From an uncultured Candidatus Saccharibacteria bacterium (GTDB lineage Bacteria > Patescibacteriota > Minisyncoccia > Phycocordibacterales > UBA5272): a stretch of 56,848 nt of DNA. The translations under genes and the position numbers were made by a program. The first letter of the stretch is position 1, and each line of letters opens with the position of its first letter. The stretch covers positions 1-56,848 of the forward strand of contig CAYOQQ010000004.1 of NCBI GenBank assembly GCA_964406165.1, written 5' to 3'. This document shows positions 20,035-35,699 of the stretch, in pieces. The notes under the pieces were generated by a model. That model did not search any database. It worked only from the letters and a program-made list of their open reading frames with translations, and was not told where the DNA came from.

Positions 20035-20739
20035 ATGTCAAACACATTTACAAAAAATAGTTTCCGTGGATTCACCCTTATTGAGCTTCTCGTGGTTATC
20101 GCCATCATTGGTCTCCTTTCAACAATTATTGCTGCACCTATTCAGAGTGCTCGTAAGAAGGCTCGTGATGCTAAGAAGATTGCCGAACTAAAGAGTACAC
20201 AGCTTGCGTTTGAACAGTACGCTGAATCTAACTCAGCACAGTACCCGACAACTCTCTCTGCACTTTCTCCTCAGTTCATGCCTGTTCTTCCAACGTTTGC
20301 TGCTTCTACAACATCTAATCAGCGTGACTCATTCCTTTACACATATTACACAGCGTCATCTACTGGTGCTCAGAGTCAAATCTTCGCATATCACTTCGGT
20401 GTTAAGCTAGAAGTGTACGGTCCTGCTCTTGAAACTGACCGTGACTGTAAAGGTGCTGACCTTACTGATCAGCTCGCTATCCCACTTTGTGCTGTATACA
20501 ACGGTAACTACATGGTTGGAACTCGTGTAGCTACTGGTAACCAAATTCCATTTGCTAGTATGGCTTCAACAACTGGAGGGGGTCAAGCTCCTAACAGTAT
20601 CACCGGAACAGACTTCGAAGCTTCAAGTTCTACAGCCGCTGTATCAAGTGCTCTAGGTATCTCAATCTACACAGAAAACTCAACTACAACTTGTATTGCT
20701 ATCAACGACTGTATCTTCGATATTACGTCTCAGCAATAA
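20035..20739 (+). CDS. pilA: type IV pilin, copy 1
   Basis: Prepilin leader and class III signal: MSNTFTKNSFRG/FTLIELLVVIAIIGLL (G-1, F+1, E+5). Confidence 0.8.
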   Translation: MSNTFTKNSFRGFTLIELLVVIAIIGLLSTIIAAPIQSARKKARDAKKIAELKSTQLAFEQYAESNSAQYPTTLSALSPQFMPVLPTFAASTTSNQRDSFLYTYYTASSTGAQSQIFAYHFGVKLEVYGPALETDRDCKGADLTDQLAIPLCAVYNGNYMVGTRVATGNQIPFASMASTTGGGQAPNSITGTDFEASSSTAAVSSALGISIYTENSTTTCIAINDCIFDITSQQ

Positions 20740-20763
20740 TTCTTTAGTAGGAAACTGTTAATT

Positions 20764-21522
20764 GTGTTGTCTATCTTAGCTTTCATTTACGGTGCATCTA
20801 TTGGAAGTTTTGCACAAGTTGTTGCTTCACGACTACACGTAGCACCTATTATGAAAGGACGTAGCAAGTGCCTCTCCTGCGGAGAGGCACTTCGCGTTTC
20901 TGACCTGGTTCCAATTTTCTCTTATCTTTTCCTCGGTGGTAAGTGTAGATACTGTAAAAGCTCGTATGGAGTATCTGCGCTTGTCGTTGAAGTGCTTTTT
21001 GGGATTACTTTTCTTCTTCTCTATAAATGTATCTTGGTTGGTCAGGTGTCAATGTTTATTAGCTTACTCTGGCTTGTTTACTACACAGCACTCTTTATTG
21101 TGCTAGGTGTTATGGCTTTATATGATAGAGCTCATTCATATATACCAATTCAATTCCTTTCTGCCTTCTTAGTATTGTGTGGTGGTATGTTTGTCTTGAG
21201 AGTTATTGAAGATCCAAGCCTCACCACAATTCTCTCCCCACTATTTGTCGCTCTCCCATTTCTTCTTATCTGGTTAGTAACTAAAGGAAAGGGATTAGGG
21301 TTTGGAGATGTCATTCTATTCTTTGGAGTAGGGGCATTCTTCGGATCGTTACAGGGGTTTGCTGTGCTTATGATTTCTGTATGGACAGGAGCTTTATGGG
21401 GGCTTTATGTTAAATTTGTCCTTACTAAGAAGAAGGGGTATACCGCTATTCCCTTTGTACCGTTTATAGTTCTAGGGTTCCTGTTTGTGTTATTCACAGG
21501 TATTGATGTGTTTATGTTGTAA
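20764..21522 (+). CDS. pilD: prepilin peptidase (A24 family), copy 1; last codons altered by the duplication junction
   Basis: GTG start, CLSCGE...CRYCK zinc motif, polytopic, GFGDV catalytic Asp region. It ends VFML*, whereas copy 2 ends VFMFQF*. Confidence 0.8.
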   Translation: MLSILAFIYGASIGSFAQVVASRLHVAPIMKGRSKCLSCGEALRVSDLVPIFSYLFLGGKCRYCKSSYGVSALVVEVLFGITFLLLYKCILVGQVSMFISLLWLVYYTALFIVLGVMALYDRAHSYIPIQFLSAFLVLCGGMFVLRVIEDPSLTTILSPLFVALPFLLIWLVTKGKGLGFGDVILFFGVGAFFGSLQGFAVLMISVWTGALWGLYVKFVLTKKKGYTAIPFVPFIVLGFLFVLFTGIDVFML

Positions 21523-21565
21523 TTAGGTATATACTTAGTACTATCTACAAAAGATAGAAAAAATT

Positions 21566-22270
21566 ATGTCAAACACATTTACAAAAAATAGTTTCCGTGG
21601 ATTCACCCTTATTGAGCTTCTCGTGGTTATCGCCATCATTGGTCTCCTTTCAACAATTATTGCTGCACCTATTCAGAGTGCTCGTAAGAAGGCTCGTGAT
21701 GCTAAGAAGATTGCCGAACTAAAGAGTACACAGCTTGCGTTTGAACAGTACGCTGAATCTAACTCAGCACAGTACCCGACAACTCTCTCTGCACTTTCTC
21801 CTCAGTTCATGCCTGTTCTTCCAACGTTTGCTGCTTCTACAACATCTAATCAGCGTGACTCATTCCTTTACACATATTACACAGCGTCATCTACTGGTGC
21901 TCAGAGTCAAATCTTCGCATATCACTTCGGTGTTAAGCTAGAAGTGTACGGTCCTGCTCTTGAAACTGACCGTGACTGTAAAGGTGCTGACCTTACTGAT
22001 CAGCTCGCTATCCCACTTTGTGCTGTATACAACGGTAACTACATGGTTGGAACTCGTGTAGCTACTGGTAACCAAATTCCATTTGCTAGTATGGCTTCAA
22101 CAACTGGAGGGGGTCAAGCTCCTAACAGTATCACCGGAACAGACTTCGAAGCTTCAAGTTCTACAGCCGCTGTATCAAGTGCTCTAGGTATCTCAATCTA
22201 CACAGAAAACTCAACTACAACTTGTATTGCTATCAACGACTGTATCTTCGATATTACGTCTCAGCAATAA
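21566..22270 (+). CDS. pilA: type IV pilin, copy 2 (protein identical to copy 1)
   Basis: Its 234-aa translation is identical to 20035-20739. Confidence 0.8.
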   Translation: MSNTFTKNSFRGFTLIELLVVIAIIGLLSTIIAAPIQSARKKARDAKKIAELKSTQLAFEQYAESNSAQYPTTLSALSPQFMPVLPTFAASTTSNQRDSFLYTYYTASSTGAQSQIFAYHFGVKLEVYGPALETDRDCKGADLTDQLAIPLCAVYNGNYMVGTRVATGNQIPFASMASTTGGGQAPNSITGTDFEASSSTAAVSSALGISIYTENSTTTCIAINDCIFDITSQQ

Positions 22271-22294
22271 TTCTTTAGTAGGAAACTGTTAATT

Positions 22295-23059
22295 GTGTTG
22301 TCTATCTTAGCTTTCATTTACGGTGCATCTATTGGAAGTTTTGCACAAGTTGTTGCTTCACGACTACACGTAGCACCTATTATGAAAGGACGTAGCAAGT
22401 GCCTCTCCTGCGGAGAGGCACTTCGCGTTTCTGACCTGGTTCCAATTTTCTCTTATCTTTTCCTCGGTGGTAAGTGTAGATACTGTAAAAGCTCGTATGG
22501 AGTATCTGCGCTTGTCGTTGAAGTGCTTTTTGGGATTACTTTTCTTCTTCTCTATAAATGTATCTTGGTTGGTCAGGTGTCAATGTTTATTAGCTTACTC
22601 TGGCTTGTTTACTACACAGCACTCTTTATTGTGCTAGGTGTTATGGCTTTATATGATAGAGCTCATTCATATATACCAATTCAATTCCTTTCTGCCTTCT
22701 TAGTATTGTGTGGTGGTATGTTTGTCTTGAGAGTTATTGAAGATCCAAGCCTCACCACAATTCTCTCCCCACTATTTGTCGCTCTCCCATTTCTTCTTAT
22801 CTGGTTAGTAACTAAAGGAAAGGGATTAGGGTTTGGAGATGTCATTCTATTCTTTGGAGTAGGGGCATTCTTCGGATCGTTACAGGGGTTTGCTGTGCTT
22901 ATGATTTCTGTATGGACAGGAGCTTTATGGGGGCTTTATGTTAAATTTGTCCTTACTAAGAAGAAGGGGTATACCGCTATTCCCTTTGTACCGTTTATAG
23001 TTCTAGGGTTCCTGTTTGTGTTATTCACAGGTATTGATGTGTTTATGTTCCAGTTTTAG
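22295..23059 (+). CDS. pilD: prepilin peptidase, copy 2 (probably the ancestral full-length C-terminus)
   Basis: Identical to copy 1 through residue 251, then FQF*. Confidence 0.8.
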   Translation: MLSILAFIYGASIGSFAQVVASRLHVAPIMKGRSKCLSCGEALRVSDLVPIFSYLFLGGKCRYCKSSYGVSALVVEVLFGITFLLLYKCILVGQVSMFISLLWLVYYTALFIVLGVMALYDRAHSYIPIQFLSAFLVLCGGMFVLRVIEDPSLTTILSPLFVALPFLLIWLVTKGKGLGFGDVILFFGVGAFFGSLQGFAVLMISVWTGALWGLYVKFVLTKKKGYTAIPFVPFIVLGFLFVLFTGIDVFMFQF

Positions 23060-32540: not shown

Positions 32541-32560
32541 TAGTTCTTAGATTATTAAAG

Positions 32561-32770
32561 CTAGGAATCGGTCACGGAGACTGTTTCTCGCTTCACTCGA
32601 AACAGTCTCGCTAGGTTCCAAGAACCGAACTTGCTAGTTCGCCCGTATTCGATTTCCTCGCGGTGCGATTTACAAATCGCCTGGCACACAACAAGCAGTT
32701 GTTGTGCTTCCGTTACAGACAAGTAAATAAAAAGAGACGCTGGGGTACAGCGTCTCTTTTTATTTACTTG
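32561..32770 (+). repeat. tRNA-linked structured module Met-A (candidate ncRNA or att scar), including its own terminator hairpin 32733-32762
   Basis: It shares blocks AGGAATCGGTCACG, CCCGTATTCGATTTCCT and GTGCTTCCGTTACAGACAA with module B. Hairpins at 32577-87/32599-609, 32665-80 and 32684-707. Confidence 0.6.
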
Positions 32771-32939
32771 TTGCGGGGACAGGAATCGGTCACGAAATCA
32801 CTTCCTCGCAAGCTCGTCAGAGATGATTTCTCGACCCCGTATTCGATTCCTGGCGCACATGACGCAGGTCATGTGCTTCCATTACAGACAATTAAAAAGA
32901 AAGTAGCACTGATTAACAGTGCTACTTTCTTTTTAATTG
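32771..32939 (+). repeat. tRNA-linked structured module Met-B, including terminator hairpin 32894-32934
   Basis: It starts with a copy of the antisense tRNA-Met 3' end. The exact match is 21 nt (32768-32788 = 32937-32957, so it begins 3 nt before the module boundary). GGAATCG 32782-88 pairs with CGATTCC 32844-50. Hairpin 32855-76 has a GCAG loop. Confidence 0.6.
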
Positions 32940-33010
32940 TTGCGGGGACAGGAATCGAACCTGTGTCCCGAGGTTATGAGCCTCGTGAGTTACCTCTACT
33001 CTACCCCGCT
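32940..33010 (-). tRNA. tRNA-Met(CAU), initiator-type; CCA not encoded
   Basis: Hand-folded 71-nt cloverleaf: AGCGGGG-TA-GAGT-AGAGGTA-ACTC-A-CGAGG-CTCATAA-CCTCG-GGAC-ACAGG-TTCGATT-CCTGT-CCCCGCA-A. Initiator hallmarks are the 1:72 mismatch (A/A) and A11:U24. Confidence 0.85.
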
Positions 33011-33135
33011 ATATTTGTAAACGTCAAAGTATAATACCATATTTAATTATATTCTACAATGGCAATCGTTTGATATTTATGAATCAGGGTTGAAAAAGTG
33101 TCAAATTTGTAGTAGTATTTGTTGTACTCAGTGTA

Positions 33136-33163
33136 AGAAAAATAAAATATGTCAGTGTAGCTC
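33136..33163 (+). repeat. orphan copy of the tRNA(CAU) upstream motif plus the first 13 nt of the tRNA
   Basis: The 28-nt agaaaaataaaatatgtcagtgtagctc is identical to 33277-33304. Confidence 0.8.
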
Positions 33164-33291
33164 GAGAAACTTGGTTTCGAAGATGTCCTGATTTAACAAA
33201 ATCAAGTCTTGGACTAAAGCCAGCAGGCAAAGGACACAGTTGGCCAAGGTGATACTATATCTAGTGCTCTGATGGTAGAAAAATAAAATAT

Positions 33292-33368
33292 GTCAGTGTA
33301 GCTCAGTTGGTTAGAGCGAAGGACTCATAAGCCTTAGGTCGGTGGTTCGATCCCACCCACTGACACCA
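33292..33368 (+). tRNA. elongator-type tRNA(CAU): tRNA-Met or tRNA-Ile2 (lysidine); CCA encoded
   Basis: 77-nt cloverleaf: GTCAGTG-TA-GCTC-AGTTGGTTA-GAGC-G-AAGGA-CTCATAA-GCCTT-AGGTC-GGTGG-TTCGATC-CCACC-CACTGAC-A-CCA. Confidence 0.85.
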
Positions 33369-33434
33369 CAACAATGTTTCACTTTTATGTTTAATCATGG
33401 TATATACTATATAACTCAACAATAAGGAGTATGT

Positions 33435-33671
33435 ATGGGCACTCCAAATGAAGTAGTTCAGCTATCTGTGTTTAAGTGTGTTCAGAAAGGGTGTGATGGG
33501 GATATTGAAAGAAACGCTAATAGTCAAAAAGGAGGAGGGTATTTTATTACAATAACGTGCAATAAATGCTCCCGTCAGTATAGCGGAGCACCGTATGATA
33601 CGATTTCTATTTCGAAAAAAAGTATTGAGGCACTACATCTTGCACAAAATAATCCACAAAAAACAAGATAA
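33435..33671 (+). CDS. small zinc-ribbon-like protein
   Basis: 78 aa with FKCVQKGC ... ITCNKCSRQY (two Cys pairs). SD aaggag lies 5 nt upstream. The terminator at 33689-33716 follows. Confidence 0.5.
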   Translation: MGTPNEVVQLSVFKCVQKGCDGDIERNANSQKGGGYFITITCNKCSRQYSGAPYDTISISKKSIEALHLAQNNPQKTR

Positions 33672-33768: not shown

Positions 33769-35007
33769 TCACTCTTCGTTCCTTGACCATTTCTTAGCAA
33801 CATCATCCATCTCTTTTTTAATAGCCTCTACGAAACCATTTTCGATATGTGCTTGCTTAAGAATTGTTCGTGCGTATCTGTGGTAGAAAAAAAGCGGACA
33901 GAGTGAAGATTTAACAAGTGATACTGTTATAGGTACGTTCACTGCCTTGTCGGCTTTATTTTTGTCAGTAAATGACATTGAGAGAGTAATATTTTCAATG
34001 GTGTAGTGTTTGAAGTTTCCTTTCATCTGGAGTTCTTCAAGACAGGTAAAGAGAGGGTGGAGGCCATTTTCTTGTTGAGAGCTTGGAAGCGTGAGGCGAA
34101 TTTTGTTTTTTTGTTTTTCACTACCAAAAGAAAAGGTGATAGCTTTTATCTTCCACATTAAAAGCGGAGTACCGCGATTTGTTTTTGCAAAATCAAAACT
34201 CTCATCTTTAAATGGTGCTAAGTCAAATGATTCAATTTTCTCGGTATATCCATCGTTACAAATAATTCTTAGGAATGTGTCGAGGAAAATAAGTTTCTCA
34301 TATTTGCTCCCAGTGTAAGAAATAAGAATCTCTTTATCTTGTGGAAGGTATACAATTCTTACTTTTTCAACTTTTTTCTTAGTTGCTGTTTTGTCGAGAT
34401 TTCCAGTTTCACTGTCTCGTTCAGTGGTTAGTTCGGGTGCACCTTCAAATGTTGCATCAACATACAAGACACCATTTAGAGTTTTCGATTCTACAAGACA
34501 CTCAGTTACACGATCTTCTTTGTTTGCTAAGCGAGTGAATTCTTTTGTGAGCTCGGTTATTTTAAGATTAGCTTCTGTAAGGTCTACTTCTTTTGCTTCG
34601 TAGAGCATGTAGTTAGGCTTTACATAAAAGGTGTGAAGGAATTGTACTTCATCATAGAGGTCTTTGTGGAAGAGGTAATAGTATAGTACTCTGTCATGAT
34701 CAGATGAACATTCAATATGAGTCTCGTGTTTAGCTACTTTTCGCTCAATAAAAAGTGAAGAGAATAGGTCAGAGGCATGAGGTGTGGAGATACTAGAAAG
34801 AGGGGCGAGCTCACGCTGAATATCAATTTTCTGTTCTGGCGGAAGTGAATTGTAGAAATCGTTAAGAATAGCAATAACATTCTTTCTGGTGGTCTGCTCA
34901 GTAATTTCAAAAATCGCCATTATGTCATGTCGCTTATAGAGTTCAACCAAAAGGTCGGGTGCGTAGATTTTTTTGAAGTAATTTTTGGTAGAAAATGCTT
35001 GAGCCAT
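33769..35007 (-). CDS. hypothetical 412-aa protein (orphan, no recognised domain)
   Basis: Long uninterrupted ORF between two tRNA genes, cytoplasmic and Lys/Glu-rich. Its stop codon lies inside the 25-bp repeat 33759-33783. Confidence 0.6.
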   Translation of the reverse strand: MAQAFSTKNYFKKIYAPDLLVELYKRHDIMAIFEITEQTTRKNVIAILNDFYNSLPPEQKIDIQRELAPLSSISTPHASDLFSSLFIERKVAKHETHIECSSDHDRVLYYYLFHKDLYDEVQFLHTFYVKPNYMLYEAKEVDLTEANLKITELTKEFTRLANKEDRVTECLVESKTLNGVLYVDATFEGAPELTTERDSETGNLDKTATKKKVEKVRIVYLPQDKEILISYTGSKYEKLIFLDTFLRIICNDGYTEKIESFDLAPFKDESFDFAKTNRGTPLLMWKIKAITFSFGSEKQKNKIRLTLPSSQQENGLHPLFTCLEELQMKGNFKHYTIENITLSMSFTDKNKADKAVNVPITVSLVKSSLCPLFFYHRYARTILKQAHIENGFVEAIKKEMDDVAKKWSRNEE

Positions 35008-35212: not shown

Positions 35213-35286
35213 GCAGTGGTAGCTCAGCTGGTTAGAGCACCGCCCTGTCACGGCGGGGGTCGTGGGTTCAAATCCCATTCACTGCG
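35213..35286 (+). tRNA. tRNA-Asp(GUC); CCA not encoded
   Basis: 74-nt cloverleaf: GCAGTGG-TA-GCTC-AGCTGGTTA-GAGC-A-CCGCC-CTGTCAC-GGCGG-GGGTC-GTGGG-TTCAAAT-CCCAT-TCACTGC-G. Confidence 0.9.
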
Positions 35287-35340
35287 CACATACTAAAAAG
35301 CACGACTTAAGTCGTGCTTTTTAGTATGTGCGCAGTGAAT
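35277..35340. repeat. perfect 30-bp-stem palindrome (loop ttaa) containing the tRNA-Asp 3' end and a bidirectional terminator core
   Basis: attcactgcgcacatactaaaaagcacgac (35277-35306) is the exact reverse complement of 35311-35340. Confidence 0.9.
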
Positions 35341-35533
35341 AGTACAAGGCTAAACGCCTTGTACGTGGGATTTGAATGAAGAAGCGGTCTACAAAAGTAA
35401 TACAACAAAAGTTGGTTTCATGACTTTTGTTGTATTACTTTTGTCGCTTTTTCCTTAGGCGAAAGTTAAGAGTATTTTATGAATCATGTAGTGATGAAAT
35501 AAAATACCTTAACAATCGCCAAATCCCATTCAC
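35341..35533 (-). repeat. tRNA-linked structured module Asp-1
   Basis: Read on the minus strand it starts with GTGAATGGGATTTG (antisense of tRNA-Asp 35269-35282) and ends with CATTCAAATCCCAC plus the hairpin 35342-64. It also has a 22-bp internal hairpin (35390-35443). Confidence 0.55.
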
Positions 35534-35655
35534 CTGCGTGGGACTTCGGGATTTGAATATGCGATTAGTAAATCGCGCCGAGAGGCGATATCGCGAATCT
35601 GCTTCGAGGAGCAGAGCGACGAGGCAGATTTGTGACCAAATCCCATTCCCGGTAC
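35534..35655 (-). repeat. tRNA-linked structured module Asp-2
   Basis: The minus strand reads GAATGGGATTTG-GTCAC-hairpin ... GCGATTTACTAATCGC-ATATTCAAATCCC. The GTCAC block and the GCGATTTACNAATCGC hairpin are shared with the Met modules. Confidence 0.55.
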
Positions 35656-35699
35656 TGTTAAAAAAAGACTCTATTATCATTACATGCTAAACTCATAGT

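Follow-up and report, generated by a model that had tools for sequence, protein, structure and literature searches.

The closest described counterparts of the DNA analyzed here are tRNA- and tmRNA-integrating elements, cis-mobilizable elements (CIMEs) and tycheposons, which share with it insertion in the 3' half of a tRNA gene, a replacement 3' part and flanking partial-tRNA repeats. Tycheposon islands form remnant arrays in Prochlorococcus (bioRxiv 10.1101/2020.12.28.424599). There, as here, successive insertions push older ones outward, and remnants and cargo lie beside the tRNA. Our window is a 56,848-nt stretch of an uncultured Candidatus Saccharibacteria bacterium (contig CAYOQQ010000004.1 of GenBank assembly GCA_964406165.1), in which two short structured units follow a tRNA-Asp gene and two more follow a tRNA-Met gene. 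These Asp and Met modules are probably recombinase-less miniature derivatives of integrative elements of Patescibacteria, either mobilizable in trans or decaying. Full-length relatives carry a recombinase and the window copies do not, so we regard the latter as miniature derivatives comparable to CIMEs. Tycheposons use tyrosine recombinases, whereas large serine recombinases with a gpII-type Rep were found here, and the recombinase that lies beside the junction of tRNA-integrating islets is absent from the window but present in all five full-length contexts in which the sequence reaches the junction. Neither CIMEs nor tycheposons have been described as having a conserved covarying fold with an inverted target copy, and it is this strand-specific fold, with the target copy re-matched to each tRNA, that goes beyond the known concept of remnant arrays. 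No description of the unit family was found in the papers searched on mobile elements of Patescibacteria and Saccharibacteria and on tRNA-like RNAs, or in the databases searched, and there is no Rfam model for it. The reading draws on the observed architecture, covariation, strand, distribution, turnover and gene content of the units, which are taken up below.

Read in tRNA sense, a unit runs from a hairpin, H0 (a covarying stem of 9-10 bp with loop CUGC), through the segment P1-5', the bulge AAUA(C)GG and a second hairpin, H2, ending in GUGAC, to P1-3' (tRNA C56 onward) and the acceptor 3' strand. Directly before H0, many copies have the inverted acceptor 3' strand (acc5'), which closes a three-way fold resembling the top half of a tRNA. 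Three tRNA genes were found in the window by ARAGORN and Rfam: tRNA-Met at 32939-33010 (minus strand), tRNA-Met at 33292-33368 (plus strand) and tRNA-Asp at 35213-35287 (plus strand). The first and the last of these are followed by units, which were searched with R1, a covariance model built from other genomes only. The features of the Asp locus are the following.

35213-35287, plus strand: tRNA-Asp(GTC), the docking gene (ARAGORN; Rfam 67.7 bits)
35269-35286, plus strand: C56-to-3' end of tRNA-Asp, the piece repeated within the units
35277-35340, no strand assigned: perfect palindrome with 32-nt arms (tRNA 3' end, terminator-type hairpin and acc5'), from a repeat search
35328-35340: acc5', GTGCGCAGTGAAT, the inverted acceptor 3' strand that opens the first Asp unit
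35342-35533, plus strand: Asp-1, a second unit type (type B), recognized from its sequence and not matched by R1 at E<=1
35342-64: Asp-1 H0 hairpin, loop TAAAC
35365-74: Asp-1 P1-5', GTGGGATTTG, an inverted tRNA copy (its GGGATTTG portion at 35367-74)
35391-35444: perfect 22-bp hairpin of Asp-1
35458-35520: terminal hairpin of Asp-1, GGCGA..TCGCC
35520-33: Asp-1 junction ..CAATCGC|, then the direct repeat CAAATCCCATTCAC
35534-35649, plus strand: Asp-2, a canonical unit that contains the core pattern given below (R1 match 35560-35652 in tRNA sense, 39.7 bits, E=1.9e-5)
35534-47: remnant of the Asp-2 H0 (CTGC loop and 3' arm)
35548-55: Asp-2 P1-5', GGGATTTG, then the bulge AATAT
35561-76 and 35577-86: optional hairpins of Asp-2, GCGATTAGTAAATCGC and GCCGAGAGGC
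35590-35636, plus strand: Asp-2 H2 with terminal GTGAC (the GTCAC block of the minus strand)
35637-49: Asp-2 direct repeat CAAATCCCATTCC (P1-3'), the same as the sense copy CAAATCCCATTC(C)

The Met locus, read on the minus strand, has the same plan.

32939-33010, minus strand: tRNA-Met(CAT), the docking gene for the Met units (ARAGORN, Rfam)
32957-32937, minus strand: 3' part of tRNA-Met, CGATTCCTGTCCCCGCAACAA
32888-32940, no strand assigned: hairpin after tRNA-Met with perfect 24-bp arms, terminator-like on the tRNA-sense strand
32768-32877, minus strand: Met-2, a canonical unit in tRNA sense (R1 match 32773-32877, 64 bits, E=1.8e-10)
32876-32855, minus strand: Met-2 H0, GCACATGAC-CTGC-GTCATGTGC
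32850-32838, minus strand: Met-2 P1-5' GGAATCG and bulge AATACGG
32835-32789, minus strand: Met-2 H2 with terminal GTGAC
32788-32768, minus strand: 21-nt direct repeat of the tRNA-Met 3' part
32719-32771, no strand assigned: second terminator hairpin with perfect 24-bp arms, after the repeated tRNA-Met 3' part
32560-32707, minus strand: Met-1, an expanded, older unit, recognized from its sequence and not matched by R1 at E<=1
32707-32684 and 32680-65, minus strand: Met-1 H0 and the hairpin GCGATTTGTAAATCGC
32657-32644, minus strand: Met-1 P1-5', GGAAATCG, with AATACGG
within Met-1: extra hairpins including CGAACTAGCAAGTTCGG, and an H2-like hairpin with terminal GTGAC
32570-60, minus strand: truncated repeat of Met-1, CGATTCCTAGC

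Every repeated tRNA piece, in tRNA sense, begins at C56 of the T-loop. The direct repeats measure 14 and 12 nt for Asp, 21 and 7 nt for Met and up to 33 nt in relatives, and the tRNA genes are intact; CAAATCCCATTCAC, for example, occurs at 35269-82 in tRNA-Asp and again at 35520-33. The sequence before C56 is GTGAC in Met-1, Met-2 and Asp-2 and CAATCGC in Asp-1, so that the gene and unit junctions read TT|CGATTCC.. and GTGAC|CGATTCC.. for Met, and TT|CAAATCCC.. and GTGAC|CAAATCCC.. for Asp. The uniform start of the repeats at C56 is the signature of T-loop insertions, each supplying a tRNA 3' part of its own. The window units, 105-190 nt long, keep both attachment junctions and hold no open reading frame (ORF) with a family match; mini forms overall measure about 130-220 nt and have a uniform layout.

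A sequence-only reading of this DNA had listed the shared blocks, the repeats and the sense and inverted tRNA copies, and all of them were found where it placed them. The palindrome beside tRNA-Asp is perfect, as that reading held, but its arms are 32 nt long rather than 30; it arises because the unit opens with the inverted acceptor 3' strand directly after the terminator hairpin, and the same layout of tRNA 3' part, hairpin and acc5' recurs in the folds of loci L042, L010 and L039. The likeness of the Asp and Met blocks does exceed chance: the hairpin GCGATTTACNAATCGC has two exact sites in the window, 35561-76 (minus strand) and 32665-80 (plus strand), where shuffles expect 0.04, Met-1 and Asp-2 have a common 25-nt block with 88% identity, and both Met-2 and Asp-2 were matched by the model made from other genomes.

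The core pattern GAATCTGCTTCGAGN{4,14}GAGGCAGATT was searched among GTDB species representatives and gave 41 loci, all in metagenome-assembled genomes (MAGs) of Patescibacteria (Saccharibacteria, Paceibacterota, Parcubacteria and Gracilibacteria), often several per genome. An exact core of at least 30 nt is common to MAGs of Saccharibacteria, Paceibacterota and Gracilibacteria. With R1, about 75 forward-strand copies were found in 46 sources. The sequence-only reading spoke of one family customized to two different tRNAs; the family is broader, since the upstream gene in the same orientation, whose T-arm matches P1, is a tRNA for Asp, Met, Lys, Gly, Ser, Glu, Trp, Val, Leu, Arg or Pro, or tmRNA. 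In the fetched loci, 34 of the 64 tRNA/tmRNA genes have a unit 37-67 nt past the gene end, in a sample biased by the selection of loci that contain units. The atypical window units also have relatives: the Asp-1 sub-block GGCGAAAGTTAAGAG is present twice in L033, there with an H0 of TAAAC loop, and the Met-1 sub-block GAACTAGCAAGTTCGG occurs in L059 and L061. Sub-hairpins of Met-1 recur at the end of L059, an element integrated in tmRNA.

Two observations concern the spread of individual copies. Locus L028 (3722-4184) has three units in perfect tandem, repeating every 182 nt with flanks identical over 145 nt, which points to a recent tandem amplification in which the sequence downstream was copied along with the unit. 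The units at L031 6230-6327, from a Gracilibacteria MAG, and at L046 7639-7736, from a Saccharibacteria MAG, are nearly identical including H0 and P1; this near-identity across class-level lineages could be due to horizontal transfer or to mis-binning.

Structure statistics were taken from 34 aligned units. Cells predicted to pair do so in 93.2% of cases, versus 35-44% in controls with slid partners. Compensatory changes affect nine of nine H0 pairs and six of nine P1 pairs; H2 is 98% paired, and its pair 46-92 switches among GC, CG and UA. Divergent copies have different H2 stems in which pairing is still kept, which adds further covariation. P1 covaries with the T-arms of at least 14 tRNA species and with that of tmRNA. 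A contiguous P1 run of at least 7 pairs is formed by 52% of units with their own partner and by 13% with swapped partners. Three positions of H2 hold conserved G·U pairs in 31 to 34 of the 34 sequences, and these become A·C mismatches on the opposite strand. Since the G·U pairs are valid only on the tRNA-sense strand, the folded strand is placed in tRNA sense, plus for Asp and minus for Met.

The strand matters for an explanation in which the units are minus-strand antisense modules, convergent with the tRNA, that pair with mature or precursor tRNA, as the sequence-only reading proposed. Although the units do hold 7-20 nt complementary to the tRNA 3' part, these nucleotides belong to the tRNA-sense strand, where they already pair in cis with the repeat next to them, and the conserved G·U pairs would be lost on the other strand. 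R1 gave no opposite-strand match in the window at E<=1. The antisense transcripts expected from about 35680 likewise gained no support, as no promoter-like site was found before the units on either strand, nor near 35680 on the minus strand. We consider this explanation very improbable.

Under a different RNA-level explanation, each unit would be expressed as a small RNA imitating the upper half of the neighboring tRNA; it would be produced by read-through and processing by tRNA enzymes and serve as a decoy, processing signal or regulator, the cassettes being secondary. In such a molecule the acceptor-like stem, H0, a T-stem extended by P1, and H2 in place of the T-loop would form the mimic. 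Many folds do close with an acceptor-like stem made of the same bases as the tRNA acceptor (L042, L010, L019 and L039), but this stem is missing in many other copies, for example L031, L029 and L037. The tRNA sense of the units and their fixed distance of 37-67 nt after the tRNA suit read-through, against which stand the lack of a promoter-like site and the strong terminator hairpin between tRNA and unit. Strong covariation, G·U pairs and conserved loop sequences are typical of RNA, yet G·T pairs fit folded single-stranded DNA equally well. In Rfam 15 nothing but the tRNAs reached the gathering score, and relaxing the cut-off to E<=10 added for the units only noise of miRNA-type hairpins, so no RNA family was matched. 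In addition, the units bound cassettes and the ends of recombinase-bearing elements and turn over rapidly between near-identical genomes. An RNA mimic is therefore unlikely in our estimation, if clearly less so than antisense pairing.

The units could also be thought of as inert scars, debris of decayed attachment sites whose fold is only a terminator or chance symmetry. No recombinase lies nearby, several copies are degenerate (Met-1, Asp-1, L014, L020 and L047), and the outer direct repeats are shorter or decayed, all of which would be expected of debris. Inert debris does not account, however, for compensatory changes that keep three helices over phylum-level distances, or for the exact core common to MAGs of three lineages. 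The deletion end-points are uniform, with terminator, acc5', H0, P1 and H2 always kept, and the inverted target copy is re-matched for each tRNA, even in the differently built end of L063 described below. We thus give little credence to the scar explanation, somewhat less than to the RNA mimic, and return to miniature derivatives of integrative elements.

Syntenic contigs were found through homologues of the flanking proteins, and a metagenome synteny scan with a 412-aa ORF of the window gave five loci, three of them useful. Among close relatives (90-96% aa identity in the flanking genes), the same tRNA is followed by different numbers and kinds of units. The unit count after tRNA-Asp is two in the window, one in L004 (about 90% aa identity; no Asp-1), three plus ORFs in L009 (96% aa identity) and one in L010; in L009 the H2 stem of an Asp unit differs, and a small ORF and further units come after that unit. 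In L010, whose flanking protein is 62% identical, the core of a Met unit differs by 1 nt from that of the Asp unit of L004 (about 98% identical), the exchange being confined to the segments derived from the tRNA. The occurrence of near-identical cores beside different tRNAs, and in separate lineages, may reflect mobilization in trans by a related autonomous element. The direct repeat of L010 is 33 nt long and extends into the old terminator; overall, repeats start at C56 and measure 12-33 nt, outer ones being shorter or decayed.

Some units enclose genes. Locus L034 has four junctions of the GTGAC|CGACTCCGTG type with the same repeat, three of them matched by R1, and carries a 2-kb cassette of three ORFs, one of which encodes a PemK/MazF toxin. 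In L018, tRNA-Asp is followed by a YecM gene and then by two units. Other cassettes hold a methyltransferase, a 2'-5' RNA ligase-like protein and DUF1360, and cargo is present at L018, L030, L009, L041 and L020. No recombinase was found in the cargo cassettes examined.

Larger inserts do carry such enzymes. In L030 a 3-kb insert between tRNA-Leu and the unit holds a truncated Rep of the Phage_CRI family (Ff gpII-type), whose homologues are about 357 aa long. The homologues always lie in a module of regulator, small ORF, Rep, small ORF and serine recombinase. The recombinase has a Resolvase domain, with Recombinase or zinc-ribbon domains in several cases, and complete genes are large (502-556 aa); in L055 only a 248-aa Resolvase ORF was called, near the contig end. 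In all five contexts for which the fetched DNA extends to the junction, the recombinase gene and the 3' end of an opposite-strand tRNA or tmRNA gene overlap; in a sixth, L055/56, the fetched DNA ends before the recombinase-side junction. The overlapped genes are the following.

L057: tRNA-Val
L059/60 and L066: tmRNA
L063/64: tRNA-Trp
L067/68: tRNA-Leu

The suggestion of T-loop-specific integrases, now absent from the window, was thus largely right, full-length relatives carrying a large serine recombinase. Among the contexts other than L066, four have at the far end a unit or a similar fold that terminates in GTGAC|C56. Three of them were recognized by the model (L055/56, L057 and L067/68) and one by eye (L059, in an expanded form not matched by the model). 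The end of L063 is built otherwise and has no R1 unit: an inverted acceptor strand, a hairpin, an inverted T-loop, further hairpins and a 19-nt direct repeat follow one another, to judge by sequence a different fold with the same logic. Locus L067 is decisive for the element boundary: after the unit at the element end come an old 3' part of tRNA-Leu, perfect over 20 nt, the terminator that belongs to it, and then a resident mini unit. Between the tRNA-Val and tmRNA elements the recombinases show 70-72% identity, and those of L063 and L067 are only 20-28% identical to them.

A conserved pseudo 3' part of a tRNA was also noted in the full-length elements, just before the terminator that precedes the end unit, of the form GGTTCGAC..GTTTCTCCACA or AAAGTTCKGAAASCCAC..GCACA. 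It is alike among elements in different genes and is therefore internal to the element. Its positions on the tRNA-sense strand are these.

L057: 3190-3130
L059: 3300-3240
L030: 3330-3385
L055: 3800-3750
L067: 5830-5790

Taken in sequence, these features would fit the following mechanism. The element would insert in the T-loop of a tRNA or tmRNA gene, at or just after C56, and in tRNA sense would consist of a replacement copy of the C56-to-3' end, then cargo or a terminator hairpin alone, and then a folded end unit of about 100 nt; since a replacement tRNA copy is carried, the gene stays intact. The end unit would comprise the inverted acceptor 3' strand, H0, P1-5' (an inverted copy of the T-stem 3' strand and of the 3' half of the T-loop), the bulge AAUA(C)GG and H2 with terminal GTGAC, and the displaced old tRNA 3' part would follow it as a direct repeat able to pair with P1-5'. 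In arrays the newest copy would adjoin the tRNA and the outer copies would be pushed outward. Repeated insertions stacking in this way explain the presence of two units at each window tRNA, the palindrome and what had been described as retargeted ends. Insertion would be catalyzed by the serine recombinase and/or by the Rep acting on single-stranded DNA, a host recombinase being a further candidate. The fold presumably acts in tRNA-sense single-stranded DNA produced by the rolling-circle Rep, where it would rebuild a duplex attachment site with H2 as one arm and P1 plus the acceptor stem as the other, around GTGAC|C56 opposite the bulge; the same fold may double as a replication origin. The unit may accordingly be a folded single-strand mimic of an attachment site, a replication origin or a guide. 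While the inverted copies, the covariation and the strand-specific G·U/G·T pairs are observed, we infer folding of the DNA from covariation alone.

Several points weigh against miniature integrative elements. No recombinase or Rep gene was found in the 56-kb window (Pfam on nine flanking ORFs; tblastn with two recombinases and the Rep) or in the 8-kb mini-unit loci. No circular form or empty site was observed. The viral, phage and plasmid collections searched gave no unit, either with Asp-, Met- and core-specific patterns in IMG/VR or by blastn against GenBank phages and PLSDB plasmids. The presence of units after about half of the tRNA genes of the sampled loci, at a fixed distance, also fits a host-beneficial or RNA-level role. 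Serine recombinases cleave duplex DNA, and none is known to require a folded site. The recombinases of L057 and L067 are only 20% identical, yet have the same GTGAC junction, which weakens the role of H2 as a simple recombinase-specific binding arm (P-arm). Finally, where units already follow most tRNAs of a genome, one lying close to a large element's end might be a resident copy; L067 counters this, as a single clear case.

Folded single-stranded sites are reportedly used by the phage CTX-phi, with its attP(+) forked hairpin, and by integrons, with attC. As in these, two inverted attachment copies 60-150 nt apart can fold to a duplex here, with strand-specific features; tandem arrays occur in both, the association with a rolling-circle Rep recalls CTX-phi, and the toxin-antitoxin cargo recalls integrons. 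However, CTX-phi and integrons rely on XerCD or IntI and on dif or attI targets, whereas no tyrosine recombinase was found here, the target is a tRNA T-loop, and folding is suggested by covariation only. The unit is not an integron attC, as inspection showed no R'' (RYYYAAC) or R' (GTTRRRY) boxes, the unit ends being GGAATCG..GTGAC|CGATTCC, and the loci examined have no IntI.

The IS200/IS605 elements, which are said to recognize their cleavage and target sites through pairing with a short internal guide, and their gene-less derivatives similar to palindrome-associated transposable elements (PATEs) and miniature inverted-repeat transposable elements (MITEs), are alike in having an HUH enzyme in the autonomous form, end hairpins and abundant miniatures. 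Their guide pairing can be reset by changing the guide, which resembles the pairing of P1-5' with the target from C56 into the T-stem. They differ in their Y1 TnpA and 4-5-nt pairing, as against a gpII-type initiator, 7-20 nt and an additional serine recombinase here. A strand transfer of HUH type, from unit TCG|AATA to the bottom strand of the tRNA gene, was rejected, as it predicts an orientation opposite to that observed.

Classical attP/attB sites of the phiC31/Bxb1 type are duplexes of about 40-50 bp with a 2-bp shared core, and usually there is one fixed target. The recombinases found here share with this type the Resolvase, Recombinase and zinc-ribbon domains, a length of 500-556 aa and the position of the gene directly beside the attachment junction, but those that are 70-72% identical sit in tRNA-Val and tmRNA genes, and the element end is long and structured. 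The Rep belongs to the same Pfam family as gpII of the Ff phages (M13/f1). The M13 nick region CTTT|AATAGTGGACTC and the conserved unpaired TCG|AATAGGGGTCGC of the unit, in the bulge and the first part of H2, match at 9 of 12 positions after the nick and then continue with an inverted repeat, a similarity only, which we take as a weak lead to an origin. Unlike in Ff, the unit segment lies on the strand opposite the Rep coding strand, and no morphogenesis genes were seen. The combination of a large serine recombinase, a rolling-circle Rep of filamentous-phage type and a folded, re-matchable end is unseen together in the databases and papers searched.

The re-matching of P1 raises the question of whether the unit is a targeting device encoded in nucleic acid, which would direct programmable, guide-directed integration by the serine recombinase and/or an HUH Rep. 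P1-5' and acc5' would then select the T-loop of one particular tRNA or tmRNA, and replication from unit to unit within an array would enclose the tRNA 3' part found there in a new circle, so that new targets would be acquired automatically. Such a guide system would be distinct from integrons, CTX-phi, IS200/IS605 and the bridge RNA of IS110. We regard this possibility as doubtful, although less remote than the RNA mimic, and note that target choice by a nucleic-acid segment rather than by a protein would be of direct interest for programmable DNA insertion.

As miniature derivatives of integrative elements, the units would mark a main route of gene gain in the tiny genomes of the candidate phyla radiation (CPR): about half of the tRNA/tmRNA genes in the sampled loci carry a docking unit, and the cassettes hold toxins, methyltransferases and other accessory genes. 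R1 can be used to delimit such islets in MAGs, and the units explain tRNA-fragment 'pseudogenes', palindromes and assembly breaks beside tRNA genes.

Two further identities were considered for the unit and set aside. The signatures of self-cleaving ribozymes, hammerhead (CUGANGA..GAAA) and hairpin ribozyme (N*GUC, GUAUAUUAC), were checked by eye, and the CUGACGAG of Met-2 is not conserved elsewhere. Inverted repeats and hairpins as in a retron ncRNA are present, but no reverse transcriptase lies nearby.

The surroundings of the window tRNA genes show additional rearrangements. The block with the divergent pair of tRNA-Met genes (window 32560-33370) is inverted in the 96%-identical L009 (6900-7570), and in L004 only the first 9 nt or so of the 72-nt tRNA-Met are left at that block, followed by a glutaredoxin-like ORF; the tRNA cluster of the window is a rearrangement hot spot. 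Between its tRNA genes lie a 78-aa CxxC-rich small protein (33435-33671), which has two paralogues in L004 and L009, and the 412-aa protein used in the synteny scan (33769-35007), which has no family match; both are conserved in relatives. Far from the units, at 20035-23059, pairs of ORFs of 234 and 252 aa and then of 234 and 254 aa resemble a tandem duplication of a two-gene module.

A duplication was also seen on the 5' side of the tRNA genes. At window 33138-33304 the promoter and the first 13-24 nt of the tRNA (AAAAATAAAATATGTCAGTGTAGCTC) are duplicated 141 nt upstream of the plus-strand tRNA-Met, the two copies being separated by a conserved insert of about 115 nt. This arrangement recurs upstream of tRNA-Asp in L004 (340-475 and 2655-2790) and L010 (4600-4725), and upstream of the other tRNA-Met in L009 (7260-7160, minus strand). 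The junctions lie in the D-loop region (..TAGCTC|GAG.. and ..CAGCT|CGAGG..), which suggests that these mini insertions belong to another element family, one that replaces the 5' part of the tRNA.

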